Below, one piece after another: positions 11,107 through 38,924 of a stretch of 64,000 nucleotides of DNA. The notes under the pieces were generated by a model. The model made no database searches and was not told where the DNA came from. It saw only the letters and a program-made list of their open reading frames with translations. Both the position numbers and the translations under genes were made by a program. Position 1 is the stretch's first letter; every line of letters starts with the position of its first letter. Location: the NCBI GenBank assembly GCA_964619725.1, contig CAZUFC010000001.1, forward strand, positions 32,001 to 96,000, given 5' to 3'. Source of the DNA: an uncultured bacterium (GTDB lineage: Bacteria > CSSED10-310 > CAZUFC01).

Positions 11107-11108
11107 GC

Positions 11109-12212: not shown

Positions 12213-12214
12213 TC

Positions 12215-13981: not shown

Positions 13982-14131
13982 GCGTCCAGATTCCCGCAGA
14001 TTAGAGCAAGGAGTACCGGAGGATTGCGGAAGCATACCGGCGCCATGTTGAGCAAGCCCGCAGGGAGCAGCGCTTGATGGTAAGGTGATATGGACGTTCG
14101 TTACAGGGTTTGTATGAAAAATCCGGGTTGA
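13982..14131. repeat. Degenerate palindromic intergenic element (MITE-like)
   Basis: CGTCCA...TGGACG arms. The core GCAAGGA..GGATTGCG..TGAGCAAGCCCG loosely resembles the reverse complement of 35310-35390. Confidence 0.35.
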
Positions 14132-14364
14132 AACCGTATTGTAATGAAAGTTGTCTCATTATAGTTTTGAAACACACCGGCGGGGCTGCTTTCTTCTAAC
14201 TTCCAGTCTTTGCAGTAATTTCCTGTTCAAATGGCGATGAACGGTCCGCTGCGGGTTATTTCAGGAAAAAAGAGGATCGAAATATGTGAATTTTTATTTC
14301 GGCATGAATGAAACCTTGGGAACAGGATGATAGAGGATAGCGTCTCTGTTCGGACATGAGTGAC

Positions 14365-14380
14365 GGGCAGGAAAATTGCA
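14365..14380 (+). promoter_or_regulatory. Putative sigma54 promoter of the omcE-like gene
   Basis: GGGCAGGAAAATTGCA, with GG(14366-67)-N10-GC(14378-79). Shares GAAAATTGCA with the 5934 site. Confidence 0.65.
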
Positions 14381-14443
14381 TATTTTATTCTGATGAGAAC
14401 TTTTTTTGAAATGATACATTTTAATGGAGGAAATAGGAGGATT

Positions 14444-15073: not shown

Positions 15074-15121
15074 AACAAGGAACGCTATTCTTTTCTAACG
15101 AATAACAAGAGCTCAGCTAAC

Positions 15122-15166
15122 ATCAAACGGCATTTTCCGCAAGGGAAGATGCCGTTTGATTTTTTT
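15122..15166 (+). terminator. Intrinsic terminator after the omcE-like gene
   Basis: ATCAAACGGCATTTTCC-GCAA-GGGAAGATGCCGTTTGAT hairpin followed by a T-run. Confidence 0.85.
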
Positions 15167-15179
15167 GTTCTTCGTTTTT

Positions 15180-17039: not shown

Positions 17040-17176
17040 ATAAAAGAATTGTTGTATAAAGTCAAGAGACCATCAGTTTCTCTTTTCCTGAGACGGAGAG
17101 AGAGATGCTTTTGCTGAGACGAGACGGACGGGGCAGTTCAACGCGGGCTTTGGGGGATTGTTTTACTTTTGATTTC

Positions 17177-17204
17177 TTGACTTTTGTGCGCCGATTATTA
17201 TGAT
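17177..17204 (+). promoter_or_regulatory. Putative sigma70 promoter
   Basis: TTGACT-N16-TATGAT upstream of the 17383 gene. Confidence 0.45.
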
Positions 17205-17382
17205 TAAATTCAGATACTTCCGACTGGATAAGAATGGGTCAGCGAAGTCTCCATACATAATTGCCAGTGATCCGTAAATCCAGACAAGGGTTAACATCCG
17301 TCGCTTCTGCATTCTCATTTACAGACCGGCCATTTTTATCAGTCGAAAAGCGTCAAAGAAAAGAAAACGACAGGAGGAAATA

Positions 17383-20469: not shown

Positions 20470-20656
20470 TGTTCAATGATTAGGATACTTTCAACAACAT
20501 TCCCCTGAACGGGGTTTTTATGTTTCACAAAGGACTCACGTCAAAAAAAGTTATGGAAACGATTTGATTTTTTCCCGTGGTTCATAATAGATTAGATTAT
20601 GGGAGCTTGATGAATTTTTGACAGCGGGTAGGGCTGCTCATCACGGGAGAGTAAAA

Positions 20657-23600
20657 TTGAAAAAAGAGAATATAATTCAAGTCAATGCGGTTTTGACTGT
20701 GATCATTGTGTTTCTGATTGTTTTTTCAGGCGCGGCAGGAGCATGGACGGTAGTGGAGGATTTTGAGCCGCCTCATGAGGAATGGAGGTTCACCAGTTAT
20801 TCGGGCCAGGATCAGCAGCCGAATTTTTTTGATTATTCGGATGATCATGCAGCGGGGGGAACGGATTATTCGTTGAAGATATGGGGCAACTGCTGGAAGC
20901 TTGAAGATATATCTGACAGGGAGGTATATATACACCGGTCGAGCATCTGGCGCATAAGTCTTTATACTCCGTGGAAGGGGACATTGCAGGCATTCGGGAT
21001 TACGGACGGGACTAATGCCGTGATTTATCCGTTGAACAGCAGCGCTGAGCCTCCGGACGGCGAGGAATGGGTGACGGCATATGACGGCTGGAAGGACACG
21101 GAAGATCAATTCAAGTATTACAAGCTGCCGGTTGGAGAGGACTGGTACGACAGGTACGGTGGAGGAGACTGGACGCAGGTAACGGGATTGATATTCATCA
21201 ATGACGAAGATACGGACAACGGGATTGTTTATTTTGATCAGATACTGGATATAACGGAGGACGAGCCGGCACGGCCTGTTGTCGACGCAGGACCCGACAA
21301 GTATGCAGCGGTGGGGGAATCGGTATATTTTGAGGCATCGATCGAGGACCCGGACAGCATAGCTTTTGATTGTTTCTGGGATTTCGGCGACGGTACGGTT
21401 AGCGGAAGCATGACGGCAGAGCATTCATTTTCATCGCCGGGAGGATACAACGTTCTTTTTTGCGCGACCGATGAAAACGGCTGGAAGGATTGCGATTCCC
21501 TTCTGGTTATTGTAGGCGGCGACGATTCTTCCCGGATCGCAAAGCTTCTTTTCGGCGGAGACGCCATGTTTGGAAGGCGATATGAGGATGCCGACGAGGA
21601 CGGCATACCCGGAAACAATGACGGATCGTTGATACTGCCCGGTGATGACGGTGAGGGAGCCCAGGCCATCGGTCACTGGACTCGCCGCCATTCTGCGGAC
21701 CTGAAGATAATCAACCTGGAAACGCCCTTGTCGAACCAGGGTTCACCTCATCCCACCAAGACGTATACTTTCCGCAGCCGCCCGGACTCCGTTGCCGGCT
21801 TGACCGAAAACGGCGCGGACGTGGTGAGTCTGGCCAACAACCACATCATGGACTATGGAGAACAGGCGCTGACCCAGACGATGGATGTCCTTGCCGACCC
21901 TCAGGCTTACAGCGAATATGCCCGTGATTATCCCATAAGTTTCACGGGCGCGGGAAACAGGCGTTATGATGCCGCTTTCCCCGTTACGAAAGCGATAGAC
22001 GGCCTAAGGATCGGTTTCGTGGGATTATGTTCCATTGACGGCGTCAGCAACAATCATCAGCCGTTTCTTCACGCCGGTTACGACAAACCCGGATTCAGTC
22101 AGCTCAATCTGTATAATTTGACCAGAAGCGTTCAGAAATGCGAACAGATGGCTGATTTGACCGTTGTTATGATGCACGGCGGGTATGAATACGAAGTTTC
22201 GCCGTCCGGAACCGTTCTGGAGCTGGCGCATGAAGCCGTCAATTTAGGCGCTGACCTGGTTATTGCGCACCATCCTCATGTGAGCCAGGGAATAGAAATA
22301 TACAACGGCGTTCCTATCGTTTTCAGTCTGGGAAATTACATTTTTGAGCAGAAATTTTTGCGGACCATGAAGACCTTTATGGCTGAAGTGCAGTGCAGTC
22401 GTGACGGAGTATTGAATCTTCTGACGGTACCGGTTTTTATCGAGGATTACGTGCCCAAGTTCGTGGTCGGAGGCACAGGTGATGAGCTGATTTACAGAAT
22501 AGGCGCATTTTCAAGCGAATTCGACACCACGATAATTCCCTGCAGAAGTAAAGGCATAGTCTCATTGACAGGTGATGAATTCGATAAAACATTAATTCCT
22601 TTTGAGGAATCGATACCTCTGACTTACAGGAACCTTATCCAGGACTATGGATCGACTGTGATAGAGCTTTCGCCGGGGCTTCATCTACAGAGCATCGATC
22701 AATTGCATAACGTTCCGGGGTCTTTCAGCGTTTTAACCGGCTATGACCGGCTGGTCTTCGGCAACATGGAGGATGATGACCTGGATGACGAGGTTAACGA
22801 GGGAACAGGATGGGCGCTGGAACCCGGAGCGACTCAGACCATTTCTCAGTATAATCCTTTTGACGGCGAGAACAGTCTCCGCTTACGGCTGCACGAATCA
22901 GCCTATTATCCGACCGAGGTGGAGACCGACGGCCGTATGCCCATCATCCACTCGGAATTATACTCCATATGCGGTTATGCAAGAACGTCTGACGCAGGCA
23001 GTTCCTATGTCGATATTTACTGGATGTATTATCCTTACACCTGGGATTCCTGGGATGATTATCGCCAGGTCTGCTACGGCCCCATTTCGGAATTTAACGA
23101 CTGGCACTGGTTCGACAGTTACTGCCGGGCCCCTTACGATCTGGAGTATGCTCGCGTTCAGGCGCGACAGTATCCGCCCGATGACGGTTCGGACTACGGA
23201 TACTTCTACATGGATAATGTAAGGCTGATCGAGTGGACGGAACATGAACAGCCTTTTATGCCGATGTATTTCAATGCTCCGGGAGGAATAAGATTCATAG
23301 CCGTCAAGGCCGGAAGTTCAGCCGCGGACAGCTCCGTCTCATATACTGTCGCTGAATACGACGCAGAAGATTACGACGAAGACGGACTGTATGATTTCCT
23401 GGAAGATGCAGACGGCGACGGCGTTGTCGATTTCGGTGAAAGCGATCCGATGCTATATGATACGGACGGCGACGGCCTTTCAGACGGCGAGGAATTCTAT
23501 TTCGGCGATGACGGTTATGTGACGTTTGCATATCTGATCGATTCTGACGGCGATATGTTTTCCGATTATCAGGAATGGGATGCCGGAACCGATCCCACCG

Positions 23601-24235
23601 ACGATCAGTCATTCCCCGACTGGCCTACCCCCACTTTTACCGCCACTCTTTCACCGACTCCATCTCCCACCGCATCTCCAACCCGAACGCCTACATCCAC
23701 TCTCACCCCTTACCCGACGTCAACTCTTTCACCGACCCATTCCCCTACCTATACGCCTACACTCACGCCCACCCTATCACCTACTCACACTCCCAGTTTA
23801 ACGCCTACGGATTCTCCCTCCTGGTCTCCCACATCAACCGCCGCGCCGACAGACACCATAACTCCTGTTCAGACCGGTACGCCTGTCCCCCTTCGCAACG
23901 GCGTTCGACTGATCCTCAACGACACATTCTTCCAAGCCGGCGACAACTTTCATCTCCACGTCGAAATTGGCAACGACGGAGCCGACGTATACCTTGACCT
24001 CTATGTCCTGCTCGAAGTCTACGGCGCTTTCTGGTTCTACCCTTCCTGGCTCCAGGAACTGGATTCGGAATTACACTTTGCTTCCTACGGAATTACTCCC
24101 GTACAAATTCTCGATTTCATCTGGCCGGATAATGCCGGACAAATGAACGGCGTTATATTCTGGTCTGCCGTTTTCCACCGGGGCTCCTTCGACATATTCG
24201 GCCATTTTGATTCAGTCGAATGGAATTTCGGTTGA
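20657..24235 (+). CDS. Secreted CapA/PgsA-family metallophosphoesterase-like protein with PKD domain, DxDxDG repeats, Pro/Thr linker and conserved CTD
   Basis: [50 protein letters not shown] (PKD). Likely TTG start 20657 (track gives 20618). Confidence 0.85.
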
Positions 24236-24549
24236 TGAAATTTGCTTTTAATACCTCGTTTAATATTATTATGCTTGACGGGCTCGCGAGTTTTAAGCCC
24301 CATATTCGACAGTTTTCCACGCCGGCTCAGCCGACATTGCTTGAGAAAAATTGTGAATTGTATGACGAAATGCGACAATCGAAAAAACAATACTAATAGA
24401 AAAAAGTTCTTCCGCTCGATGAGGTTTTTGGAGGGGCTAAAAACGGCACAATCTTTATGCCGACTCGCATTGTGAATACAACTAATTCAACAGCTCAGGA
24501 TATCTTTGTCAAGATTGCTGCACCTGCTTTTTCGCTCCAGGGTAAAGGA

Positions 24550-27519
24550 ATGAATACTAAAAACAAAAAACAGATTTTTGCGCTTTCAGCTCCTGCTGTC
24601 ATATTGGCAGCGTTCATCGTTCTGACGGTCCTTCAACCGGCCTTTTGCCTCGCTCAATCGCTGCAGGACCGTTGGATAGTCCGGATTACTCTTTCAGAAT
24701 ACCTGGAAATGGCCGGCCGGCATGAAGATTGGTTTGGAGATATATTCGACGTTGTGGGGCGGTCACAGGAAGATCAAACCGTCGATGTGCTGACGGAGGC
24801 AGATGGTCTTGAAGCATTGGAAGCCAGGTTCGGAACTATGCGTATCGTAATGACGCCCGGGGAAATCAATGACAGGGACATTGATCCGCAATACCTCAAT
24901 TATGATGAGCTGGAAGGGCTTTTGACCGATTATGCTGCGGATTACCCGGATATCACGGAATTGCATGATCTGGGAACCACGCATGAAAACCGGACAATCT
25001 GGGGCATTAAAATTTCCGATAATGCTGAAACCATTGAGGACGAACCCTCCATACTGATAATGGGGTTGCACCACGCCCGGGAAATCATGTCGACGGAAAT
25101 CGCTGTGGACGTCGTGGAACAACTTACCGGATATTACGGATCAGACCCCGACGTCGACAGATGGGTGGAGGAACTGCAGATATGGGTCGTTCCTATGGTC
25201 AATCCTGACGGCAGCGCTTACTGCTGGAGCGACGACATGTGGTGGACCAAAAACAGAAGAGAAAACATCGACGGCTCCTATGGCGTTGACTTGGACCATA
25301 ATTATCCGTTCCAGTGGGGCGAATGTTTCGGGTCCAGCAGCGATCCTGAGAGCGCGGGATACCGCGGTCCCGAACCGGGTTCTGAACCGGAAGTGCAAGC
25401 GATAATGAACCTGGCTTCTCAATATCGCTTCATCCTGGCGCTTTCCTACCACAGCTTTGACGAATTGCTCATCATGCCGTACGGTTGCAGCTTTCAGTAT
25501 GTCCCGGACCGTTTCGCCCTCCAGAATTACGGCAACCGGATCGCTCAGGAAATACGAAAGGAAAACGGCTATTACGGATATGATGCCGGCGTCTGGTGGG
25601 AAATCCTTTATCCTACGGACGGAGTGGAAACGGACTGGTTCTACGGCGAATGGGGAACGTTCTGCTACCAGATTGAAGTTAACGCGGAAAGTTATTATCC
25701 TCCTTATTCGCTCAGGGATGAAACCGTGGAACGTAACCGTCCGGGATGGCAGAAGATGCTGGACCTGGCGCTGGACGGGAGCATGATCACAGGACATATC
25801 TTTGATGAATGCACGGGCGAGCCCCTGTCAGCCGCTTATTCGGTCGAAGAAATAACCCTGGAAAACGGCGAAAAAGAAAGAATGTCCGATCCGCTCTTCG
25901 GCAGTTTCTATTATCCCGCTTTACCTCTGGCTTATCATCTCTGCGTTTCTGCAGAGGGTTATGCTGAAAGAATACGCTTCGTCTCCTTAAGCGATGAACC
26001 GCTGTCAGTCGAACTGGGGATTGTGCCGCTGGATGAGTTCGGACTGCTTTACGAAACCAATACTGTATACGATCAGGAGGGCGACGACGACAGGACCCTC
26101 GATCCCGGGGAAACAGCGAATCTCATGGTCGCCGTCAGATCGCCGGGGTATGGCCTGTCGGGCATATCGGCCCTGCTGACCTCAGATGATTCCTATATCG
26201 ACATCATAACCGACACCGCATACGTCGGCGATCTTTTCGGAGGCCAATTGGGTTGGACCCTCGATACGGGATTCAGAATACACGCTTCTCCTTATACGCC
26301 CGATAATCATATCGCTGATTTTAATCTGTTTCTCTCTTCAGACCAGCCTTTATGCGACGATGTGGAACATTTTGAATTAAAAATCTGCAGCTATGTGGAC
26401 GTTTGTCCTCTCTACGAAGAATCCCTTGATTCAAACCCCCAGTGGGATATCGAAAATACCGGCGAAGGGGGATGGGAATTCGGCATACCCGCAACCGGTC
26501 CGCCGGGACCTTACACCGGAAACTTCGTTTACGGAACCAACCTTACCGGGCACTACGGAGACAACGGTTTTTATCAGTTGACTTCCGATCCTTTCGACTG
26601 CTCCGAACTTTCCCAGACTGAACTTCGTTTCATGCGATGGCTGCACAATGAGGAGAACTACGATGAAGCCTACGTGCAGGTCAGCGCCGACGGTTCCAAT
26701 TTCATTACCGTTTACGAAGGATATGAAAGCGACGCCCAATGGATGGATATGCGCTACGACATCGCTTCGGTAGCTGACGGGGAAGACTCCGTGTACGTCC
26801 GGTTCATCCTGGATACCGACGTCAGCATAAACTGGGAAGGCTTCTATATCGACGATTTGAAAATTTGCGGACGTTTTGAAGGTCAGGTCCCGCCCACATT
26901 CATTCCCACGGAATCGCCCATGCCGACCTTCTCAACCCGGACGCCTACACCCACGCCCACTTCATCACCCACTCTCTCACCCACAGAAACCTGCTCGCCG
27001 CCGCCCACAGCCACACCGACCGTCACATCTTCGCCTACCCTTTCGCCTACGCCTTCGTCTACTCCCACGCGCTCGCCTACCCGCACAGTAACCCGGACCC
27101 CTACCGCCACTTCCAGCCCCACACTTACCGCTACACCCAGCGGAACACCTGAAATGTCGCCTACTCCCGCTGAATTCTTCCTTACCGATATACAACTCAG
27201 CCAGAACCTTTTCCACGCCGGAGACATGTTTATTCTCAACCTTGAAATCAAAAGAAACGGTCCGGCCGTCGACGTGATGATATTTATTATTCTGGACGTC
27301 TGGAACGATTATTTCTTCTGGCCGGGTTGGACGCCTGAAGCCGACTGGCAGGAAGAACACATATATCACGGCTATTCCGACATGACCAATATCCTTTCAT
27401 TCATCTGGCCGGACGATGCCGGAGCCGCCCAGGGACTGAGATTCTGGGCCGGCTGCGTCAACCAGGCCGATAATGATTTGATCGGCAATATCGATTTTGA
27501 GGACTTCAGTTATGAATAA
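24550..27519 (+). CDS. Secreted M14 zinc carboxypeptidase (carboxypeptidase T-like) with Pro/Thr linker and conserved CTD
   Basis: [32 protein letters not shown]. Likely ATG 24550 after AAAGGA (track gives 24457). Confidence 0.88.
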
Positions 27520-27633
27520 TACTATTTTGTTTGCTTTATTACGCCTTTCGAAAAAATATAAATTGAATCGAACTTGTCCTGCAGAATTCTCTTTTTATCC
27601 TCAGCTTTTTTTTCAACATGGAGGATGCAAATT

Positions 27634-30357
27634 ATGAAAAAAATCGGCCTATTGACGGTTGCCATCGGATTCCTGGGCATAATTGCAGCCGGAACTGCCG
27701 CTCAAGCCGGCATATTCGGCGACGGCTACTCCCTTAAGGTTACTAAAAACGACAGGGAAACCAGAGTCTCCATTAAGATAAAAATCGACGACTTTCAACT
27801 TTCTACTAAACGTGTGCAGGGAGTTCCCTATACCATACCTGTAATAGCCGATGCCGGATACGCCGGCGCTCCGGGCGAACCTTATCTCCCCATTATCGGT
27901 CATTTCATACAAATATCAGACACTCAAAGGGCGGAACTCTCAATGACCGAACTTAAAACCGCCGAGTATTTCCTGGATTCTGAAATATTGCCTGTCCAGG
28001 ATGACCAGGAACCTGTCGATGTAAACAGGATAACGAGTTACGACGAAACAGCTTACTCAAGTTCACATATTTTACCGGAAAAGACCGTTTTCATAAGCAA
28101 GCCTATGATATTGAGAGACGTCCGCGTGGTTCAGCTCGGATATTGTCCTGTCCGTTACGATCCTGTAAGGAATTCTATAATGTTGATCGAAGAGGCTGAA
28201 GTGCATCTGACCATGCAGGGTCCGGACGACGTAAACGTAAAAACCGTCAACCGGGGGATCACGCCGTCCTGGAAAAAGTTGTATGAAGCTGTTGTGATAA
28301 ATTTTGAGCGAGGTTCGAATGATCGAACGGGCGAACTGGAGCATTACCTGCTGGTGATGCCGGACGAATACGAATCGAGATGCCAGGCTTTTATACACTG
28401 GAAGGAGGAGCAGGGATACATCGTGGATATTCTGCGTCTTTCGGAAATCGACGATAATCCTACGACTTACCAGGTGAAAACGGCCATAAGGGATATATAT
28501 GAAAGTGCCTCGCAGCCTTCCTACATGATACTTTTCGGCAATCACAACAACTTTCCTCTGGCTGAATCATACGATAATTACATGCCCGGATGGTATACCG
28601 ACGACGTTTATTATACCTTGATGGAAGGCGACGATTTCCTGCCTGATATATGCAGTTCCCGCATCCCCGCAGAAACGCCCAACGGCGCATCAGTGATATT
28701 GAATCGCGACCTCTACTGGGAACTCACCCCCAATTTGGATAACGAAGAATATTATAAGTCGGCTCTCATGGCCTGTTCGGGACTCTATCAGAGCCAGCAG
28801 ACCGTTAAAGAGCAAAATGCCGTCAGACTCACGGATTATCTGGACTACGAATCGATCCATACCATGTATGACTGGACCGGCCAGTCGCTGAGCCAGGTTA
28901 AAAGCTGGATAAACGACGGAGTTTCGATCATCAATTACCGGGGCGAAGGGTGGCAGTCCGGATGGAACCCCGGACACGCCTACAGCTTCCACTATGACGA
29001 CGTCTGGACATTGCAGAATGAAGACCGTTTTCCCATCATAACCAGCGTGGGATGCGGCGTCAGTATGTTCGGCGACGGTTCAACATGCTTCAGCGAAGCC
29101 TGGATTCTTCTGGGCGACATGATTACCGTCAGAGGCGCTGCCGCCATATACGGTCCCTCCTGGAATACGCGCACCACCTTCAACAACTGGATGGACAGGG
29201 GCATCTACCGCGGGTTCGCCTATCACGACGTCAACCAGCTTGGAATGGCTTGTCTCTACGGAAAACTATACATGTACAACCATTTCCCGGAACCGCAAAA
29301 CCAGGGATACAATGAAACTCACATCAGGCAATATGTCCTTTTCGGCGCACCCGATATTTGGTGGAGAACAGAATTGCCCCGGGAACCGCTCGTAGGACTG
29401 ACATTTTATCCCGGCTCTTCAAGACCCGCCGTGTGGGTCAGACAGGGGCACAACAAACATATCTGCCCCAACGCACTGCTCAGCGTCATGCTTGAAGACG
29501 ACCGGAGAACATTCTTTACCGACCACGGCGGAGGACATTCCATTACCATCTACGGCATTTGGGAAGAAGAAGGCTTCGACCTCACCGTATCAGGCTTTAA
29601 CCTCCTGCCTTACCAGACATTCATTGAACTCCCCTGGCAACTCAATCCCGACCGAAACCTCATCATAACAGAAATCAAACCCGATATCCCCACCACAGGC
29701 TCCCAAGGCGATATGGTCGAATTGTACAATAACGGCGATGCCGACATCGATCTCCACCGCTGGATCATGACCGACCTCGACGGTTACGATGCCGTCATTA
29801 TTCAGGACCACGCCATACTGCAACCGCAAAAAATCGCAGTCATTGAATTCGTCGGTCCAAACGGCCAGGAAACTATCCAAGAAACTGATTACGGTTTCCG
29901 CATTACTTCGACCGCCTTGCCCTGCTTCTCCTCACTGGAAGACCAGGCCGTCCTAAGAAGCCCCACAGGCATCCCCGTCGACAGCATCGTATGGACGGAC
30001 AAAACAGGACAATCCGCCACCAATGAAGCCCTCGACATGTCAAGATTAACCCCTCCCACCGCACCCTACGACGCAATGGATGAGGAAGCCTGGTGGTCCG
30101 CTCCAGACGAAATATCGCAAATGACTTACGAAAACTACGCCGTCGACTGGTCGGAATTCGCAGGCAACGGAGGCCCAGGATCAATCCAACGAATTTATCA
30201 ACCCGTAAACGCCCTCACTGACCCCGCTGCCCTGCCGGACGACCGCTACGACAGCAAAGACGACTTTATCGTCTCTTCATCGGATAGTTTCGGACAATAC
30301 GGCGCTGCTAATAATCGACTACGACCCGGCTCATTTCTTCGTGTCGACAGCAAATAA
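27634..30357 (+). CDS. C25 (gingipain-like) peptidase homologue with propeptide and a C-terminal lamin-tail-like domain
   Basis: Propeptide (GAPGEPYLP; PMILRDVRVVQL..CPVRYDP), WKEEQGY, YTDDVYYTLMEGDDFLPD, GVSIINYRGEG, SVGC. ATG 27634 after GGAGG. Confidence 0.85.
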   Translation: MKKIGLLTVAIGFLGIIAAGTAAQAGIFGDGYSLKVTKNDRETRVSIKIKIDDFQLSTKRVQGVPYTIPVIADAGYAGAPGEPYLPIIGHFIQISDTQRAELSMTELKTAEYFLDSEILPVQDDQEPVDVNRITSYDETAYSSSHILPEKTVFISKPMILRDVRVVQLGYCPVRYDPVRNSIMLIEEAEVHLTMQGPDDVNVKTVNRGITPSWKKLYEAVVINFERGSNDRTGELEHYLLVMPDEYESRCQAFIHWKEEQGYIVDILRLSEIDDNPTTYQVKTAIRDIYESASQPSYMILFGNHNNFPLAESYDNYMPGWYTDDVYYTLMEGDDFLPDICSSRIPAETPNGASVILNRDLYWELTPNLDNEEYYKSALMACSGLYQSQQTVKEQNAVRLTDYLDYESIHTMYDWTGQSLSQVKSWINDGVSIINYRGEGWQSGWNPGHAYSFHYDDVWTLQNEDRFPIITSVGCGVSMFGDGSTCFSEAWILLGDMITVRGAAAIYGPSWNTRTTFNNWMDRGIYRGFAYHDVNQLGMACLYGKLYMYNHFPEPQNQGYNETHIRQYVLFGAPDIWWRTELPREPLVGLTFYPGSSRPAVWVRQGHNKHICPNALLSVMLEDDRRTFFTDHGGGHSITIYGIWEEEGFDLTVSGFNLLPYQTFIELPWQLNPDRNLIITEIKPDIPTTGSQGDMVELYNNGDADIDLHRWIMTDLDGYDAVIIQDHAILQPQKIAVIEFVGPNGQETIQETDYGFRITSTALPCFSSLEDQAVLRSPTGIPVDSIVWTDKTGQSATNEALDMSRLTPPTAPYDAMDEEAWWSAPDEISQMTYENYAVDWSEFAGNGGPGSIQRIYQPVNALTDPAALPDDRYDSKDDFIVSSSDSFGQYGAANNRLRPGSFLRVDSK

Positions 30358-30783
30358 ACCGCCGCCCCCCTCCGAAAAAACATCATCCAAGTCGGAAAGC
30401 CTCGTGCCTTCCAAATAATCCCGGAACAGCTTCTGCATCTTGCCCAGAACTCCACCGAATATGCACTTCTTTCCGTCACATACTGACTCGTCGAACAAAC
30501 ACGCCCGCAAAACCGGCGGCCCTTCTATCGCTTCGTATAGCTCCATGAGCGTTATCGAATCAGCTTCCCGGCCTAATACGAATCCGCCGCGAGGGCCTCT
30601 CGTCGATTTAACCAACCCCGTTTTCGACAACCTCTGGAGCACCTTGGATAAATGAGCAGCCGATACATTGAGTCGTTCTGAAATTTGACGGGTCGTCAGC
30701 GATTTGCCTTTATTTGATGCCAGCAATGCCGCCGCATGAAACGCTATCGTCGACGCCTCCGATAATCGAAATATTCCCGACAT
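30331..30783 (-). CDS. Rrf2-family transcriptional regulator with three Cys (probable Fe-S)
   Basis: HLSKVLQRL..GLVKSTRGPRGGFVL; C-LFDESV-C-DGKK-C. Confidence 0.92.
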   Translation of the reverse strand: MSGIFRLSEASTIAFHAAALLASNKGKSLTTRQISERLNVSAAHLSKVLQRLSKTGLVKSTRGPRGGFVLGREADSITLMELYEAIEGPPVLRACLFDESVCDGKKCIFGGVLGKMQKLFRDYLEGTRLSDLDDVFSEGGGGLFAVDTKK

Positions 30784-31071
30784 CCTACCTCCTCTTCACT
30801 TGCTCCTCTTTCTTTTACTCCAAATATCCCTTCCATTTCAACCATTGCTGTATCGAAATGATGAAAGCCCCTGTTACCGACAATCGATTAAGGGGAAGAA
30901 GACCCGCTGGAACAGTCTCCGACCCCTCCGCAAAGAAAGAACTCAGCATAAAAGCCGAAAAAAAAATCGTATACGGTCATAAAGACTTGACGGCTCATCT
31001 CGGCGTGTTCGATATTCACACCGGGAAAGCGGCAGGATGCCGCTTCTACATTTAATTCTTCGATTATTATT

Positions 31072-31241
31072 GGCATTGATCAAAAAATCGTCTTTTGAGG
31101 TTAAAATTCTACAGAAACTCACATCATTTTATTTCGAATTTGATCCCGGCGATACCGATTCAGACCCCGATAACGAATCCGATCACTGAAACAAACTGTC
31201 GAAAGTTTTGAAACAAGTGTAACCTCTGTTTGATCAGTCCC
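31072..31241. mobile_element. MITE-like element A, copy 2
   Basis: Same termini and blocks as 20085..20299 (CGTCTTTTGAGGTTA, ACTGAAACAA.CTGT, AAAGTTTTGAAA.AAGTGTAACC) with a shorter hexamer tract. Confidence 0.65.
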
Positions 31242-31477
31242 CGGTTTTCAATGAAATTTGCTTTCTTCCGACATCTGAGATTCAGCATTCTGCAGTGTTT
31301 CGTTCAGCTCTATAGAATCCATACGTTGCGGGGACGGACAGGCGATGTGATTTTATAAACAAAAACTGGCTACTTTTATTCTGCCAGGTAGGTCTTTTTC
31401 TTGATCGGTTCTGAATGCTGCGGCTTAATGATCGCAGCGGTTTCAATTTATGAAACAAAAAAAAATTAAAAAAAGTC

Positions 31478-31505
31478 TTGACACAAAAAATTATTCTGGT
31501 ATTCT
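31478..31505 (+). promoter_or_regulatory. Putative sigma70 promoter with A-rich UP element
   Basis: TTGACA-N16-TATTCT preceded by A-tracts. Confidence 0.55.
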
Positions 31506-31670
31506 AATACCACAATGCTGTTTCGGCTTGCGCCGGAGGGCATTGCTGATGAAACGAGGATGCAGGTCTTTCGTTAAGGACGTTTGAAGGGCCTGTTGGA
31601 TAAAAAGAAAAACTGATCGGTTCAGAGGGGCTATTCCGATGAACTGATTTAATTTGAAGGGAGACAAATC

Positions 31671-33179
31671 ATGAAACGGTTAAATTTTTTACAGACATCA
31701 ATAACGCTGTTGGTTTTTCTGACAGCTTTTGTTTCGGTAAGTAAAGCTCAGTATGCGAATCATTTTCAGAAAATTTTCGATACGGGAACGGATACGGATA
31801 TAACGGCCATGACGAACACGTTTGACGGCGGATACGCAATGGTCGGGACCTACATGGACGACGGAAGATACAAGTATCCGCTTATGATGAAGCTTCACGA
31901 CGATTTTTCTGAGGAATGGACTCGAACGTATGACGTTCTGCAGCTTCCCTACCCCGGCATCATTTTGCCGAAGGACGTTCAGCAGACACATGATGAGGGG
32001 TACATCATAAGCGGCAAATTTATAGCGCCGTCCGTAGCGACGGGGGCTTTTTTGATGAGGACCGATTCCTGGGGCGAGGTGACGTGGTTTCGGGTTTATC
32101 CGGGGATACGCCGGTTGAATTCGGTTGTGGAGACGATGAGCGGTGGCAAGCCTGACGGTTTTGGAGCAGCGGGATATACCTATTATGATGCCGGCGAAAG
32201 GACCGGGGTCATTTTGCGAACGGACGCGGACGGATATGTGGAGTGGACCCGTTACTCCATGGGCATGAAGCATGGATTACCCGGAGCGGCGGATTACAAT
32301 CAGATCGTGCGTTATGGCGAGGGCCTGCTGGCTGCTGCCGGATATGCGAATTACGATCCGGTTCACCATGATGCGGATGTGCTTTTAACGGTAATAAAAT
32401 ATGACGGCAATCCGGTTCTTCACAGGACGTATGGAATGTATTTTTCTGATGCAGGGGATCTGCTTTGGGAACAGGGGACATCGCTGGTAGAACTGAATGA
32501 CGGATCGGGCGATCTGGCGGTTGTCGGCAATTACGCAGCAGGGGACATTGAAGCGACCCGTGATCCATATTTTGAAAACATCTTCGCCTTCCGCGTCACG
32601 CCGGAGGGGGATGTTGTATGGTCCAGGCGTTACGGACCTTTTGAAAGGGACTCCTTTGCGAACAGGGTAATCACCGACGGCGGCAAATACCTCTACATAA
32701 CGGGAAGGACCTATACGGCCAGCCTGGGATATCCCACCGTCTCCAGTGCAGAGGTCCTTCTGCTGAAAATCGATATTGCGGGAAACAGCATGTATCATGA
32801 TCTTTTGGGCGATTCTGGAGACGAAGAGGGAGTATCTGTGGTTCGTAACGACTCTGGTCATTTGACCATAGTCGGAAACACGACGAGTTTTCATCCCGTC
32901 GACAGGCAGATATATCTTATGGAAAGATACGAGAATCCTTTGCGAAATTGCAGGGACTTACGAGAAAAGAACAGGGATCAGAAAATAGACCTACCTGCCG
33001 TAAAAGCGCTGATGAGAGGAATGGAGGAAAAATCTGCAACATTCGTCGTGAGAGCTGATAAATCAAAGGTCCGCGACAGAATTCTTTGCAGGAAAACTTT
33101 CATTGGCTCACTGCAGGAACAAGAAAAAGAGCTTCAATATCATTTCAAACTTTCCGACAATAACATTTCTGAGGAATAA
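31671..33179 (+). CDS. Secreted beta-repeat (probable propeller) protein, paralogue 1
   Basis: Signal peptide; repeats of T.DGGY..VG / L.KxD..G.V.W.R.Y. Confidence 0.75.
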   Translation: MKRLNFLQTSITLLVFLTAFVSVSKAQYANHFQKIFDTGTDTDITAMTNTFDGGYAMVGTYMDDGRYKYPLMMKLHDDFSEEWTRTYDVLQLPYPGIILPKDVQQTHDEGYIISGKFIAPSVATGAFLMRTDSWGEVTWFRVYPGIRRLNSVVETMSGGKPDGFGAAGYTYYDAGERTGVILRTDADGYVEWTRYSMGMKHGLPGAADYNQIVRYGEGLLAAAGYANYDPVHHDADVLLTVIKYDGNPVLHRTYGMYFSDAGDLLWEQGTSLVELNDGSGDLAVVGNYAAGDIEATRDPYFENIFAFRVTPEGDVVWSRRYGPFERDSFANRVITDGGKYLYITGRTYTASLGYPTVSSAEVLLLKIDIAGNSMYHDLLGDSGDEEGVSVVRNDSGHLTIVGNTTSFHPVDRQIYLMERYENPLRNCRDLREKNRDQKIDLPAVKALMRGMEEKSATFVVRADKSKVRDRILCRKTFIGSLQEQEKELQYHFKLSDNNISEE

Positions 33180-33195
33180 AATGATCCGGAAGTTA

Positions 33196-33227
33196 CACGG
33201 CGATCGAGCTCATCATCGGTCGCCGTG
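33196..33227 (+). terminator. Hairpin after paralogue 1
   Basis: CACGGCGATCGA-loop-TCGGTCGCCGTG with a weak T tail. Confidence 0.45.
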
Positions 33228-33485
33228 ACGTTCATTTTCGGTCCTCACGCTATTACTGCAGCCTGTTTGATTTCCTGTTTCATCGGAAGCAAAGCGAACG
33301 GACGAAAGAATCAGTCAGGCATACTTAGCGGATAATGTTTTTTATCTGGATATTGGAAGAGCTGATCATAAATTGACGAAGGGCCCGATGCAGGAGAGAT
33401 TTTCGGAAGCATCGGGCTTAAAAATAGAGAATATCGCCGGAGAGTTTTTTCCCGGCGCTAAGTTCCCGGAAAAAAGGAGAAAAAA

Positions 33486-34973
33486 ATGAAACGGTTAAAT
33501 TTTTCAATAAAGATGACAGCAGCGGTCTTGTTTTTTATGACGGCGTTCATATCGGCGAGTGAAGCGCAATTCATTTACAATCATCAGAGGGTTTACGATC
33601 CTCTGGCCAACTCAAACGTAACGGCAATGGCTAAAACGACGGACGGAGGATACGTGATCGTCGGGACTTATCTTCCGGCCTGGAGCGGGGTAGGCCGTGC
33701 AATAATGATGAAACTTGACGGGGGATTCTCAACGGCATGGAGCAGGACTTTCGACGTACCAGGGGCGCCTTATCCTGCGATGATCTCTCCCCGAGACGTT
33801 TACCAGACGCTGGACCGCGGGTATATAATTTGCGGTAAATTCATTGCAGAGTCGCTTGTAACGGGTTCTTTTCTGATGAAAACGAACTATGTAGGCGACG
33901 TGCAATGGTTTCAGGTTTACCCGGAAATACAGCAGTTGAACTCAGTCGTTCAAACCACAATGTCGGGACAGGCTGACGGTTATGCCGCGGGCGGATTCAC
34001 GCGATACGACAATAATGAAACGGTGGGCGTGATTTTAAGAACGGACGTTAACGGCGGCGTCACGTGGAAACGATATGCGAGGGGATTGAAGTATTCGGTT
34101 CCCGGAGCTGCGGCCTACAATCAGATCATCCGGTATGACGAGGAGTATCTGGCGCTGACGGGATATGCGAATTACGACCTGGCGTATCAGGATATGGACG
34201 TTCTTTTAACGGTGATCAGTCATGACGGCGTGCCGGTTCTTCATCAGACCTACGGAATGTATCTTTCCGATAAAAACAACGGAATACGGGAAAAAGGCGT
34301 ATCGCTTGTCCGGCTTGAAGACGGAACAAAGGACCTGGTGATAACAGGCAATTATACTTCTGCAGTGATAGGAGTCTGTACGGACCCCAACTTTGAAAAC
34401 ATATTCGCCTTCAGAGTAAACAGCGGCGGTCAGGTGTTATGGGCCAGGCATTACGGGCCGCGACACACAAAGATGTTCGCGAATAGAATCGAACTCGGAC
34501 GCAAAGACGACCTCTACATAACCGGATGGACCCGTTCCAACAGCCTGGGCGCTCCTTCCAACATATCGTCGGAAGTATTGCTGTTGAAAATCAATGATTC
34601 AGGAACCGGCATATATCGTGAGATGTTCGGCGACGACGGTCAGGAAGGCGGAGTTTCGCTTGTTCGGAACAACCATGGTCATATGGTCATAGCGGGGAAT
34701 ACGACGAGTTTCAACTCGGCGAACAATGAAATTTACCTGATTGAAAGGTATGATCACCGTTGGAGAACATGTAAGGATTCACGCGAAAAACAAAGGACCG
34801 TCAAAATTCTAATGCCTGCTTTGGAAGCTGACCTCATCGAGGTCGGCGAGGAAGCGATACCTTATGAAGTTGAATCGATCGTGATCAGAATCGATGAAAG
34901 GGTCCTCTGTGAAAAACGTAAACTTCCCTGGTATTTCCAGCAGATATCCATAGCAGACCCATTCAAACCTTAA
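33486..34973 (+). CDS. Secreted beta-repeat protein, paralogue 2
   Basis: Collinear with 31671..33179 (MKRLNF, PGAA.YNQI.RY, DP.FENIFAFRV, AGNTTSF). Confidence 0.75.
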   Translation: MKRLNFSIKMTAAVLFFMTAFISASEAQFIYNHQRVYDPLANSNVTAMAKTTDGGYVIVGTYLPAWSGVGRAIMMKLDGGFSTAWSRTFDVPGAPYPAMISPRDVYQTLDRGYIICGKFIAESLVTGSFLMKTNYVGDVQWFQVYPEIQQLNSVVQTTMSGQADGYAAGGFTRYDNNETVGVILRTDVNGGVTWKRYARGLKYSVPGAAAYNQIIRYDEEYLALTGYANYDLAYQDMDVLLTVISHDGVPVLHQTYGMYLSDKNNGIREKGVSLVRLEDGTKDLVITGNYTSAVIGVCTDPNFENIFAFRVNSGGQVLWARHYGPRHTKMFANRIELGRKDDLYITGWTRSNSLGAPSNISSEVLLLKINDSGTGIYREMFGDDGQEGGVSLVRNNHGHMVIAGNTTSFNSANNEIYLIERYDHRWRTCKDSREKQRTVKILMPALEADLIEVGEEAIPYEVESIVIRIDERVLCEKRKLPWYFQQISIADPFKP

Positions 34974-35282
34974 AAAAAAATCAAACCGGCAGTTTCCTGG
35001 TCTTCGGCAGCATTCTCAACTCTTCTGCCGGAGACCAGGAAAGCGAAAGAGAGGGGCATGAAAATTTTGCCTCCCATTCGTTCAGACCCTGAAATACCTA
35101 TGCATGACAGGGGCTGACAAAAGGATTACAGGACGCCGTGACCTTTCCGGGCATACATCTTTTCACTTTTATTCTTGAAGCTTCGCGGACAGACCAGGCG
35201 GAAGCCCGGAGTCATCGGACCGCTATGACCTGCACAATGACGCAATCTGATCGCAGGAGAGCTCTGATCCTCATTAGTTTTT

Positions 35283-35412
35283 ATCCATAAACGGCGAATT
35301 TTTCCCAATATTGCGTCAGTCTTCGGATTTGCTCAGGCAACGTATAAGCAACACCCCTGCCTCGCAAATCCTTACCATCCTTGTCTTAATAAAAATTCGC
35401 TCGTTTATGGAT
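35283..35412. repeat. Palindromic element C (MITE-like)
   Basis: Arms ATCCATAAACGGCGAATTTTT and AAAAATTCGCTCGTTTATGGAT; an interrupted homologue lies at 20014..20405. Confidence 0.65.
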
Positions 35413-35561
35413 CAAAAACCGCAGTGACTGTCCAGCATTAAATTTTGAATCGACAATCGAGTTTATGGACAGTCACTCATTAGTTTTTGTCCAAAAACCG
35501 CAGTGACTGTCCGGCATTAAATTTTGAATCGACAATCGAGTTTGTGGACAGTCACTCATTA
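35413..35561. repeat. Two tandem copies (79-bp period) of REP-like element B
   Basis: CAAAAACCGCAGTGACTGTCC(A/G)GCATTAAATTTTGAATCGACAATCGAGTTT(A/G)TGGACAGTCACTCATTA, twice. Confidence 0.9.
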
Positions 35562-35714
35562 TAATTCTTTAATCCAAGCTTCTATAATTTTTTGCATTTT
35601 GAACGGAATGTTGATAAGAAAGAAAAGGAGCCGCCGACTGGGTTAGGCTTGAAGTTGACGCAGTAAGGATATATTTTTCTTGATTGAAATCTGACAAAAA
35701 ATGAAGAGGTCATT

Positions 35715-38700
35715 ATGACGATTAAAAAGCTGAAAAAGCACTTTTTATGCCTGATAATCTGCCTGACGGCGATATCCCTGAACATCATGGCGGGACATGT
35801 TTCAGCGGGGGATGAGCGAGATGCCCGATGGACGATGATCATGATGCTGGCGGGCGAATATGCGGACATGGAGGAGACGCTGGAGCTGGAGGGAGCAGGA
35901 GATGATGTGGATGTAGTCGTTCTGCACGATCCTTATGGAGTGGGGAACTCGCACGCATACTATCTTCCTGTGGGTCCCGGTCCGGCGGTGGACATTCCTC
36001 TGGATGAAATTTTTTATCCTGATCCCGGCGATGAGATCAGCATCAGAAACAAATGGGTCGTAGATGACTTTTTAAATTACGTTCAGACTAATTTCCCGTC
36101 TCAGCATTATCTTTTGTCCATCAGAAGCGGGATGGATTTTTATTCTTTCCTGGAAGACATCGATTATCCGGCGAATGATTTCAATATGTATGAGGAGCCG
36201 GCATGCGGTGAAAAGGATGATCGTTATACGGGGATAACCATCGTGGATTTCGCCTGGGTGATGGACCGATTCGTTCAGAGGAACGGAGGCGAAAAACTGG
36301 ACGTTTTGAATCTGGGATTATGTCTCAGTTCAGTAGCAGACTGGGTTTACGAAATGGTCGATTATGCGGATTATTTTTCCGGTTCCGAAACGTATACGAA
36401 TCCTCCGGTGGCCGCATACTGGCGGAATTATCGCTGGCTTTATGAAATGAAGAATAATCCGGCAATCACGCCCGAAGAGCTGGTTATAAGGATAGCGGAA
36501 ATATTTGCGAGTCATGCGTATTACGGTTATAAAACGGATGAACCTTTTCAAGTTTCCTCAATAGACCTGTCGCTGATGCCGGATGTAGCTACGAAGTTCA
36601 GTCTGGTCATTGACCGGCTGCTGGAATTGTTTCCTTCACAGGCCGACGAATTTGTGGAAGCCGTATCCATATCTGAACGCTTCGGTCAATACCGGCGTTG
36701 CGATATGACTCACCTGCTGGAGAATACTCTTCGTTATATTTCCGATACTCAACTGGAAATGAAAATAAACGATGCCGTAAATTCAATCGATGCCGCGGTA
36801 ATAGCCAACGAATACGAACATTTTCGGAATTGCTGCGGCTTAATGGTACCCCTATTGACTTTTTCCGACTGGCACGGAAGCGCCGGAGACCTTTATCTGG
36901 AACGTTGCGGAAGCTTTGCGGAAGAAGTGGGCATGGAAAACCTCATGGATGCTCTGCCGCCGCCCGAACCGCCCGTGGAAGGACTGATAATCACTGAGGT
37001 AGACCCTCATCCCAACGATGAAGCGGGAACGGAAGGCGACGTTATGGAAATTTACAATTACGAGGATGAATCAGTGGACCTGAGAGGGCTCATCATTGAC
37101 GATCTTGACGGACCGAGGCGTTATTCTTTCATCGACGAACACGACGTCAATCATAACCAGGCGATATTGGCTCCCGGCGAATTCGCAGTCGTCAGATTCA
37201 GACGAACCGAAGCCAATCCCTACGTCGCTCCTGCTGATGCGGAAGTTACAGTTACCGGGTACGGGCTGGAAATTACTTCCTATACCGTTCATGAATACAG
37301 GGAATTTTCAGATCACGACGACCAGGCGGTCCTCATCGACGGCGACGTCATCCTGGACGCTGTAGCCTGGTGCAACAGGGACGGCGAGTCCAACGGCATC
37401 GAAGCCGTCAATCTTGAGCGCCTGGTCGAATACGACGGATGGGACGCTCCTGAAGACGTGGCCGAGCATTACTTCAGAGAAAACTATGCTGAAGGCAATC
37501 AATACGAAAAAAATACCGTTAACTTCAGCTTCATCGCCGGGGGAGAATCCGGCTCACTCCAAAGAAAATACGACGGCTCATTCTTCAGTCAGGGCCTTCA
37601 GGGCATCGATTCGCCCGATCATTTCACCGTTCTGAACGATACTACTTTCGGCGATTTCACTCCCGTCGATGCCGAATTCCAACCCCAGGCCTGCCCCCAC
37701 CTGATGATTACAGAGCTCGCCCCCAACATCTCCATTACGGAAAACGCCGGCGATCTGATAGAAATCTATAACGCCGGACTCCAGCAGGCGGATATCTATT
37801 ACGTTATTCTCAGCGATATAGACCCGGGCGAAAATGAAGAAGACCTGCCCGGTTCCGAAATAGAAATCGTCGGAGACGACATAGGACCCGGCATCGTCAT
37901 GCTGAATCCAGGCGAAATGATCGTCGTCGAACTTATCTCTGACTCCGTTCAAACTCAACCCGATCCCGTCGTCACTGACTACGGCTTCTACGTGAAAACG
38001 CCGGCCGGACAGCAGTTCGACGCCAGAGGAGACCAAACCGTCCTCGTCAACCGCAACGGAGGCGATCTCATCGATTCATTCGCCTATATCAATACCGATC
38101 TCGCAGAATTCGACAACGATGCCGCCAAAAGAGACTACCTCTTCGATTTCGACGCCCTGACACTAAGCGAAGGAGGATTCGGTTTCGTCCTGGATAATAC
38201 CGACGCCTGGGCCGGCGACGATGATATGTCCGGCATGCCGCTCACCGATGCCTTCGATTACAGAATCAACCAGGCCGTCACCTTCCCCTTCGCAGAAAAT
38301 GAAGGCGGCTCCATCCAGAGAAACATCTCTGGATACCAGTTCCAGGAAGGTCTTCCCGACTCTAAAAATATCTTCTTTACCTCAAACGTTACTTCATTCG
38401 GCGTCCTTCCCTCATGGACCCAAACTCCATCTCCTACCGGCACGCTCCCTACCTATACCCCCACAAGAACACCGACGCCTACCTTCTCCTTCTCCGCCAC
38501 TCCTACAAATACTCCGACTTTTACACCTACCATGGAACATTCCTTCACGCCGCCTCCTTCGCCCACTCAACCCCATACAGGTATCGAATGCGCCATTCTC
38601 ACTAATCAGGAAATCTATGAAGCCGACGACCTCTTCCTCCTCGATGCCGAATACTTCAACCACCACAACTATTCCGTTACCGCCGCCGAAATGATCGTCC

Positions 38701-38924
38701 TCGACGTCTACCAGGAATACTGGTTCTGGCCCGACTGGACCCAAAACTTCAATTTCCGCTCCGTTAATATGCCCCCCAATCATTACGAAACTGAAAATAT
38801 ACTCAGCTTCGTCTGGCCTCCCAATGCCGGACAGGCCGACGACCTGAAATTCTGGATCGCCTTCATGGATACAGACTTCATTGAACTGCACTGCTTCCAC
38901 AATACAGCCTTCGGTTTCCGTTGA
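35715..38924 (+). CDS. C11 (clostripain-like) peptidase homologue with two lamin-tail-like domains, Pro/Thr linker and conserved CTD
   Basis: WTMIMMLAG, VDVVVLHD, NFPSQHYLL, KLDVLNLGLC, YEMVDYADYFSGSE, SSIDLS; two LxITE..P..GD..EIYN domains. Confidence 0.75.
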   Translation: MTIKKLKKHFLCLIICLTAISLNIMAGHVSAGDERDARWTMIMMLAGEYADMEETLELEGAGDDVDVVVLHDPYGVGNSHAYYLPVGPGPAVDIPLDEIFYPDPGDEISIRNKWVVDDFLNYVQTNFPSQHYLLSIRSGMDFYSFLEDIDYPANDFNMYEEPACGEKDDRYTGITIVDFAWVMDRFVQRNGGEKLDVLNLGLCLSSVADWVYEMVDYADYFSGSETYTNPPVAAYWRNYRWLYEMKNNPAITPEELVIRIAEIFASHAYYGYKTDEPFQVSSIDLSLMPDVATKFSLVIDRLLELFPSQADEFVEAVSISERFGQYRRCDMTHLLENTLRYISDTQLEMKINDAVNSIDAAVIANEYEHFRNCCGLMVPLLTFSDWHGSAGDLYLERCGSFAEEVGMENLMDALPPPEPPVEGLIITEVDPHPNDEAGTEGDVMEIYNYEDESVDLRGLIIDDLDGPRRYSFIDEHDVNHNQAILAPGEFAVVRFRRTEANPYVAPADAEVTVTGYGLEITSYTVHEYREFSDHDDQAVLIDGDVILDAVAWCNRDGESNGIEAVNLERLVEYDGWDAPEDVAEHYFRENYAEGNQYEKNTVNFSFIAGGESGSLQRKYDGSFFSQGLQGIDSPDHFTVLNDTTFGDFTPVDAEFQPQACPHLMITELAPNISITENAGDLIEIYNAGLQQADIYYVILSDIDPGENEEDLPGSEIEIVGDDIGPGIVMLNPGEMIVVELISDSVQTQPDPVVTDYGFYVKTPAGQQFDARGDQTVLVNRNGGDLIDSFAYINTDLAEFDNDAAKRDYLFDFDALTLSEGGFGFVLDNTDAWAGDDDMSGMPLTDAFDYRINQAVTFPFAENEGGSIQRNISGYQFQEGLPDSKNIFFTSNVTSFGVLPSWTQTPSPTGTLPTYTPTRTPTPTFSFSATPTNTPTFTPTMEHSFTPPPSPTQPHTGIECAILTNQEIYEADDLFLLDAEYFNHHNYSVTAAEMIVLDVYQEYWFWPDWTQNFNFRSVNMPPNHYETENILSFVWPPNAGQADDLKFWIAFMDTDFIELHCFHNTAFGFR

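Follow-up and report, generated by a model that had tools for sequence, protein, structure and literature searches.

Do three unrelated secreted proteins that end in one and the same domain carry a common address, and if so, what reads it? The question is raised by a stretch of 64,000 nucleotides (hereafter the window; C1:32001-96000) in the genome of an uncultured bacterium of the phylum CSSED10-310, the assembly of which comprises 9.17 Mb on 344 contigs with a G+C content of 47% and is 90.9% complete and 6.5% contaminated. This genome is referred to as G000 and 13 others of its phylum as G001-G013. We find that the shared domain, called the tag in the following, represents a real, so far unmodelled and lineage-restricted domain family that is borne on stalks by unrelated, Sec-exported cargo proteins. 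As to its role, we see about an even chance that it constitutes a common surface-address module of the CSSED10-310 lineage and of at least one other.

All three genes are located on the plus strand. The first open reading frame (ORF; 20618..24235) encodes an exported protein of 1205 residues that combines PKD (Pfam PKD_4, 7.3e-15), PGA_cap metallophosphatase-like (Pfam PGA_cap, 1.7e-55) and TSP3-like repeat regions; its start codon (TTG at 20618) is uncertain, and a hydrophobic signal-like segment is present near the N-terminus. A Pro/Thr/Ser stalk of 101 residues (23594..23896; like the other stalks delimited by a composition walk) leads to a tag copy of 112 residues (23897..24232) that ends in VEWNFG and is matched by the profile described below with 4.3e-49 at residues 1104-1214 of the stop-to-stop frame. 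The second gene (24457..27519) codes for an exported M14 carboxypeptidase of 1020 residues (Pfam Peptidase_M14, 4.7e-65) with an InhA-like MAM domain, followed by a stalk of 94 residues (26890..27171) and a profile-matched tag copy of 115 residues (27172..27516) with the end EDFSYE; this copy was used for folding with AlphaFold2. The third gene (35715..38924) specifies an exported C11 (clostripain-like) peptidase of 1069 residues (Pfam Peptidase_C11, 2.5e-6) with two lamin-tail domains (Pfam LTD, 2.7e-15), a stalk of 63 residues (38391..38579) and a tag copy of 114 residues (38580..38921), also found by the profile, that ends in TAFGFR. The original prediction had described these C-termini as one domain placed behind Pro/Thr/Ser linkers on unrelated cargo, and in this it was right: the domain makes up the last 112-115 residues of each translation, the alignment of the three copies has 118 columns of which 21 are invariant (pairwise identity 29-30%), the motifs that had been quoted (F.A.D.F.L, L(D/E)V, (F/W)F(W/Y)P.W, IL.F.WP..AG and FW) are present, a linker of 63-101 residues precedes each copy, and the Pfam assignments of the cargo (PGA_cap with PKD, Peptidase_M14 with InhA-like MAM, Peptidase_C11 with two LTD) have nothing in common. 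A fixed aromatic-x-aromatic ending in front of the stop codon, which had also been proposed, had to be given up. The last strand closes on F/W-G/S-Y/W/F instead, and 0-5 variable residues follow.

The three copies are far from alone in the genome. A profile built from them only, applied to six-frame ORFs at E<=1e-3, matched 216 ORFs of G000, and this provided the genome-wide count that had been suggested along with the original prediction. From these matches an alignment of 76 copies was composed, consisting of the three copies of the window, 40 of the 213 other G000 matches (one in five along the ranking) and 33 copies taken from five relatives. The corresponding profile detects 224 domains in 223 ORFs on 123 contigs of G000, which corresponds to about 4% of its ORFs of 120 residues or more (roughly 5,700 without overlaps). 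Signal-peptide-like N-termini were found by a crude test in 159 of the 206 assessable tag ORFs compared with 1206 of 3772 other ORFs (odds ratio 7.2). Pro, Thr and Ser account for at least 50% of the 40 residues upstream of the tag in 104 of 211 copies, but only in 5 of 500 random windows. Both results agree with the predicted architecture of signal-peptide cargo on flexible stalks.

The position of the tag is strongly biased towards the C-terminus. It ends at most 15 residues from the stop codon in 215 of the 224 domains of G000 and in 30 of the 33 copies from the five relatives; world-wide, where 2607 of 1.84 billion protein cluster representatives match the profile at E<=0.001, it is C-terminal in 146 of the best 150. 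The C-terminal position claimed by the original prediction thus holds as a strong preference but not in the strict sense, and occurrence at internal positions, which had been named as an argument against a sorting signal, is in part real. Nine of the 224 copies in G000 are non-terminal: on contigs C153 and C40 the tag directly follows the signal peptide and precedes the cargo, the copies on C179 (flanked by two similar halves) and C104 are internal, C112 has an ORF with two copies, two domains are followed by tails of 31-32 residues and two are fragments. Among the relatives, 3 of 33 copies continue for 150-175 residues after the domain. The 4 non-terminal cases in the best 150 world-wide representatives include P0082, in which a signal peptide, the tag and a PEBP domain follow each other and the cluster of which is present on several contigs; an internal copy is found in the world-wide representative P0116, and another protein with the order signal peptide, tag and cargo is L108. 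Altogether, the non-C-terminal share amounts to approximately 3-9% of the copies. Since N-terminal, internal and tandem copies exist, the tag is an autonomous module with a strong, although not absolute, C-terminal preference and not a tail dependent on a free C-terminus.

Of 401 genomes searched at E<=1e-6, 15 carry the tag, namely 11 of the 14 genomes of the phylum (G000 included) and, outside it, 4 of 387 genomes. The latter contain a divergent form, and restriction to particular lineages, as had been predicted, is well visible in these numbers. Within the phylum, the tag is present in 10 of the 13 other genomes (families f4, f6 and f7), with 57-102 or at least 148 copies in each, and absent from three (f2, f3 and f5). 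The second lineage is represented by three f47 genomes with 28-37 matches and one f51 genome with 4. Its divergent form keeps the core motif and ends no more than 12 residues from the stop codon in 21 of 24 fetched copies; one copy is N-terminal behind a signal peptide, and some tandem pairs are located inside giant ORFs. One of the world-wide members is named 'candidate division CSSED10-310 bacterium' by NCBI. A domain tree, calculated by a quick search, separates two subfamilies, of which one is greatly expanded in G000 and the other contains interleaved copies of different genomes. The rows of the relatives had been chosen as the best matches to the three-copy model, and their spread in the tree is therefore biased. 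The interleaving of copies from different genomes indicates that most fusions of cargo and tag are apparently old and have not been homogenised within genomes.

AlphaFold2, run on the 76-copy alignment, predicts an all-beta domain of eight strands (predicted local distance difference test 98.2, predicted template modelling score 0.88), and according to this model the tag is an autonomously folding, eight-stranded immunoglobulin-like (Ig-like) beta-sandwich. The structural matches obtained with Foldseek and VIA-align are all generic sandwiches of the Ig, Fn3 (fibronectin type III), CARDB, macroglobulin or transglutaminase type, Spo0M included. The best Z values were found for a GH66 N-domain (5axg, 10.3), for RbmA (4be5, 10.1) and for CARDB (3idu, 8.8), with 95-101 aligned residues, root-mean-square deviations of 2.8-3.0 and identities of 10-13%; the Foldseek TM-score to RbmA was 0.65. 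Z values in the range of 8-10 are common for fold arrangements of this kind, and no function can therefore be transferred. The structural comparison recommended with the original prediction accordingly suggested the type of fold and assigned no function. No type IX secretion system (T9SS) C-terminal domain was among the listed Foldseek and VIA-align matches.

Neither Pfam (models up to 2025) nor NCBIfam (release 20) contains a model that matches the three copies at E<=0.1, just as the original prediction had supposed, and the 76 copies obtained only single chance-level matches at E<=1 (MG4 0.07 and A2M 0.2, each in 1 of 76). The statements that the tag resembles none of the LPxTG, SLH, dockerin and PEP-CTERM signals also stand: no match to LPxTG, SLH (Pfam; three copies at E<=0.1 or 76 copies at E<=1) or dockerin was obtained, the tag has no transmembrane helix, and, unlike PEP-CTERM, neither the three copies nor the 76 aligned ones show a hydrophobic helix or a basic tail, and NCBIfam gave no match. 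A comparison of the tag profile with the sequences of the PDB yielded only chance matches to YWTD propellers of LRP proteins (best E 0.0036), the ESM Atlas returned only clusters without names for the tag and an uninformative match for a second-lineage protein, a word-indexed protein search found only 2 proteins, and a related-locus search with a single protein found one locus, from a metagenome-assembled genome (MAG). Literature searches did not retrieve a description of the tag; the publication on five CSSED10-310 MAGs and their metabolism (PMC8248873) mentions neither the secretome nor the tag domain. The family has conserved aromatic motifs, Y-W-F-W-P-x-W and F-x-W-P.

What kind of proteins carry the tag? 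The survey of the cargo covered 58 representatives, namely those with a length of about 500-1300 residues in the first 126 entries of the world-wide list of 150. The cargo comprises peptidases of families M14 (six), C25 (four), S8 (three) and C11, two PAD_porph deiminases, Amidase_3, metallophosphatases and BNR/Kelch propellers, whereas 23 of the 58 have no Pfam match; fusions of an AhpC/TSA redoxin to the tag also occur. One tag-bearing Kelch protein of the world-wide set (P0070) additionally contains a Pfam Cohesin domain (8.5e-12). Several of these families are familiar from another context: gingipains, PPAD, CPG70 and HBP35 are T9SS cargo in Porphyromonas gingivalis. The C-terminal end of C25 homologs is occupied by a T9SS tag in G015, G017 and G029, by an IPTL-CTERM-like tail in the tag-negative G001 and by the new tag in G000. 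The tag thus sits in the slot of known surface-sorting signals, and it does so in genomes in which the T9SS translocon was not found. In passages of PMC8545088 and PMC12152298, the C-terminal domain of T9SS cargo, to which the gingipains belong, is described as the signal for translocation across the outer membrane; in P. gingivalis, according to the same passages, it is cleaved off, with A-LPS (a lipopolysaccharide of the anionic type) put in its place.

The evidence for the absence of T9SS is as follows. Conventional T9SS tags (TIGR04183) were found at no place in 12 of the 14 genomes of the phylum, G000 included, compared with 64-104 places in the controls G015, G017, G024 and G029. G012 (78% complete) has one and G013 (69% complete) has ten such places, and neither of the two genomes shows SprA or PorV; these tags may be bin contamination or remnants. 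SprA was found in none of the 14 phylum genomes and in none of the four genomes of the second lineage, but in 10 of 17 others, among them every genome with T9SS tags (control G029), and with G029 again as positive control no T9SS tag was found in the second lineage. Of the 15 carriers of the new tag, 13 therefore have no conventional T9SS tags and none has SprA. PorV gave no or only marginal matches (E about 5e-4) in the phylum including its 11 carriers, but strong ones in T9SS-tag genomes. The GldM model matched nowhere, not even in the T9SS-positive controls, and the search for GldM is therefore uninformative. The tag itself does not resemble the T9SS tag, as stated by the original prediction: no TIGR04183 or PF18962 match was obtained with the 76 copies at E<=1, and hhalign of the 76-copy profile against eight type A tags of T9SS controls resulted in a probability of 3.5%.

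IPTL-like tails deserve a separate remark. Only one of those in G001 and G000 reaches the TIGR04174 cut-off. It is one of four tails in G001 (L085-L088), two of which gave weak XrtH-type matches and all of which show the motif by eye. In G000, approximately seven giant beta-helix/FG-GAP/PKD proteins (contigs C32, C33, C38, C40, C137 and C245) have such tails. The pattern in both genomes is the motif [IVP]PT[LVM][ST], a helix and a basic cluster.

Proteins related to PorU are relevant to the question of how the tag is handled. PorU above the cut-off of 420 (NF033707) and adjoining PorV is present only in the controls G015 and G029, and PorU-like proteins with 230-255 bits are present in G000, G003, G007, G008, G011 and all three f47 genomes. 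The f47 proteins (243-255 bits) consist of Propeptide_C25 and Peptidase_C25 and have the new tag at their end, exactly where PorU has its own T9SS tag; the last ~95 positions of the PorU model match ordinary T9SS tags. That PorU-like proteins of f47 end in the tag is the strongest hint that it does the job of the T9SS tag, although these proteins may be plain cargo. The f47 genes in question (L128 on G053:C49, L129 on G371:C17 and L130 on G221:C15) adjoin genes for a PqqD-radical SAM-SPASM enzyme and an HPr-kinase-like protein, and this conserved pair looks like a peptide-modification cassette. The two PorU-like paralogs of G000 (C69:23976-27275 and C70:1674-4955; L096 and L097; 230 bits, 49% mutual identity) are tagless and end in an unassigned beta-rich segment of ~100 residues that is distinct from the tag.

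We propose the following model for the function of the tag. Cargo proteins would be exported via Sec, for which signal-peptide-like N-termini are observed, and would present the tag at a distance, on the long Pro/Thr/Ser stalks that are observed between both parts. The folded tag would then be recognised by one shared component of the envelope, leading to delivery to the surface, to retention there, or to both. Recognition presumably involves the loops with the conserved aromatic motifs, and the putative partner could be a shared receptor of protein or glycan nature. In this way the tag would functionally substitute for the C-terminal domain of T9SS, or for the IPTL-CTERM tail of a sister family, on the same cargo families and without the T9SS translocon. 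We regard it as less likely that a free C-terminal tail is cleaved, given the occurrence of the module in N-terminal, internal and tandem positions as well, and it is this tolerance of position, together with the missing dedicated enzyme, for which we favour a shared receptor.

Several points weigh against this model. Surface location, binding and retention of the tagged proteins are what we infer, and the test for signal peptides is lax because 32% of the control ORFs pass it. The near-exclusive C-terminal position would also be compatible with a signal that is processed. Above all, no receptor or machinery for the tag was identified, and the dedicated export or attachment pathway postulated by the original prediction was not found: nothing among the families tested shares the distribution of the tag or strictly co-occurs with it. 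Enrichment of neighbour families around the 223 tag genes was not convincing (best family 17 of 39 members nearby, p = 0.002, uncorrected). The gene directly downstream of the M14 gene of the window (27574..30357, plus strand; Pfam) encodes a C25 peptidase (C25-LTD) that has a propeptide and a lamin-tail domain but no tag, and in six genomes a C25-LTD gene directly follows a tag gene (the window, G003:C67, G003:C87, G005:C64, G007:C10, G008:C80 and G013:C217); strong, full-length orthologs (42-47% identity) are however present in only 7 of the 10 tag-positive relatives and missing in G009, G010 and G011, so that the association is not strict. Orthologs of the PorU-like proteins are found in 4 of the 10 tag-positive relatives, and distant homologs are present in the tag-negative G001 and G002. 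Two paralogous genes between the tag-bearing genes of the window (31671-33179 and 33486-34973), coding for secreted proteins of ~500 residues that are 51% identical and have no Pfam match, are specific for G000, as no ortholog was found in 30 relatives (weak matches in G001).

Two further candidates were considered and rejected. All 14 genomes of the phylum have a short exosortase-like ORF (about 195 residues, range ~180-265), which is therefore not specific to tag carriers; it matches only the C-terminal half (about 100-252) of the EpsH model (C134:13003-13455 in G000, one each in G001-G013), and G001 has a full-length exosortase in addition. A scaffold was not apparent either: the IPTL-tailed giant proteins of G000 contain no obvious partner repeats next to their beta-helix, FG-GAP and PKD parts, where no genome-wide search for cohesins was made.

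The tag could alternatively be the sorting signal of a T9SS-analogous pathway in which the cargo passes an outer-membrane translocon and a C25/PorU-like sortase cleaves off the tag and joins the cargo to a surface lipid or glycan. Much of what has been described above would fit, namely cargo families of T9SS including C25 and PAD_porph, carriers without SprA and mostly without conventional T9SS tags, PorU-like proteins in five genomes of the phylum and in the three f47 genomes, where they end in the tag, the tagless C25-LTD next to a tag gene in six genomes, and a C-terminal position of 91-97% of the copies. We nevertheless regard this pathway as rather unlikely, as no candidate for the translocon was found, PorU-like proteins were not detected in 6 of the 11 tag-positive genomes of the phylum, among them G006, the smallest carrier genome (2.6 Mb, 90% complete, ~20 contigs), and C25-LTD is missing from the three genomes named above. 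PorU-like proteins are perhaps plain cargo since C25 peptidases are common cargo, and a sortase that cuts at the domain boundary would split proteins with N-terminal or internal copies or leave them unprocessed.

Binding of a substrate or matrix, in the manner of a carbohydrate-binding module (CBM), would take the enzymes not to the envelope but to a polymer outside the cell, to particles or to the exopolysaccharide that the organism makes itself. An Ig-like sandwich is the fold of many binding modules, GH66 N-domains and RbmA, which binds biofilm polysaccharide, are structural neighbours, and the conserved aromatic motifs and the tolerance of position are also in agreement with this function, as are the Pro/Thr/Ser stalks, which are typical of CBM-bearing enzymes. 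The cargo, however, mostly consists of peptidases, deiminases, amidases, phosphatases, redoxins and propellers and not of glycoside hydrolases, and a thiol-redoxin should need the reducing system of the cell close by. Moreover, homologous cargo has cell-surface sorting signals where the tag is placed, and a single ligand for ~220 unrelated enzymes is easier to imagine as a component of the cell or its matrix than as a nutrient. Taken together, we consider such a binding module improbable. Still far less credit can be given to the assumption that the tag is a passive structural or folding domain, i.e. a stabilising cap or a C-terminal pro-domain similar to PPC, without any address function. A generic beta-sandwich, the many peptidases among the cargo and the failure to find a partner would be explained by it, but it is hard to reconcile with one conserved family on 223 of about 5,700 ORFs and with cargo of dozens of unrelated folds. 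Copies behind long flexible stalks are structurally uncoupled from their cargo, the loop motifs are strongly conserved in two lineages, and the tag is confined to genomes without T9SS tags, except for G012 and G013.

The surroundings of the tag genes in the window contain further features of interest. A large cluster of multihaem cytochromes (658-19998; Paired_CXXCH and MtrC/MtrF-like domains), interleaved with NHL-repeat propellers, looks like a locus for extracellular electron transfer; it also includes ORFs without assignment (7080-9062, 8843-9673 and 10510-11106) and a sigma-54 activator (15180-17039). An ORF of 429 residues (39388-40677), immediately downstream of the C11 gene, may encode a regulator of the cluster. 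It specifies a sigma-factor-like region at the N-terminus and an Ig-like domain at the C-terminus (weak Rha78A-N match), together with a Cys-rich segment and a membrane helix. On the minus strand (41432-48458), the gene of an Omp85/BamA-like protein of 928 residues with POTRA repeats overlaps the start of that of a TamB-like protein of 1417 residues. Both are general genes of outer-membrane assembly and are located 2.5 kb from the last tag gene.

Returning to the tag as a surface address recognised by a shared partner, it is possible to go one step further and to regard it as the recognition signal of a new pathway for outer-membrane export or attachment that replaces T9SS in at least two T9SS-less lineages with two membranes. 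We put this forward tentatively and with considerable doubt. If true, such a pathway would deal with about 60 to more than 220 proteins in each genome, and PorU-like C25 enzymes might perform a processing step. The discovery of new secretion or sorting machines has repeatedly started from shared tags at the C-terminus, as is evident from LPXTG and sortase, PEP-CTERM and exosortase, and the C-terminal domain of T9SS. The profile of the tag and the 15 carrier genomes provide a handle on how these bacteria put hydrolases on their surface, and a model of the tag would annotate ~2,600 clusters of 'hypothetical' proteins and flag the secretome of a rare phylum.

How does the tag compare with known systems? 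In predicted fold and in size it is similar to CARDB (3idu), the FnIII domains of RbmA (4be5, 4kkp), the MG domains of macroglobulins and the N-domain of GH66 (5axg), but it differs from them by identities of only 10-13% and by the absence of a profile match. The PPC domain of secreted proteases likewise is a small beta-sandwich at the C-terminus of secreted enzymes; neither PPC nor any other Pfam family matches the 76 copies beyond single chance hits (E<=1), and the cargo of the tag extends far beyond peptidases. IPTL-CTERM/PEP-CTERM signals (TIGR04174) take the same slot on homologous C25 proteins in G001 and coexist with the tag in G000, yet they are short tails (~30 residues) that combine a motif with a membrane helix and a basic cluster, whereas the tag forms a soluble, folded domain of 113 residues and lacks a helix. 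Dockerins of the cellulosome resemble the tag in that one shared module is placed, mostly C-terminally, behind a Pro/Thr-rich linker on many secreted enzymes. They are found on up to about 200 unrelated enzymes, with occasional N-terminal, internal or tandem copies, and bind non-covalently to a common partner, the cohesin scaffolds, much as the tag would bind its own. A dockerin is, however, a calcium-binding pair of helices, while the tag is all-beta according to the predicted model and has no Pfam dockerin match, and no repeat-bearing scaffold was found. From the type A C-terminal domain of T9SS (TIGR04183/Por_Secre_tail, ~75-95 residues) the tag is distinguished by its greater length (~113 residues), by the lack of any sequence or profile similarity, by the carriers without SprA and by the copies that are not C-terminal. 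The two have other features in common: both are beta-sandwiches, in the case of the tag as modelled, at the C-terminus of Sec-exported cargo, a genome contains dozens to hundreds of copies of either, and both are attached to the same families of cargo (C25, M14, S8, PAD_porph and redoxins), PorU-like proteins included.

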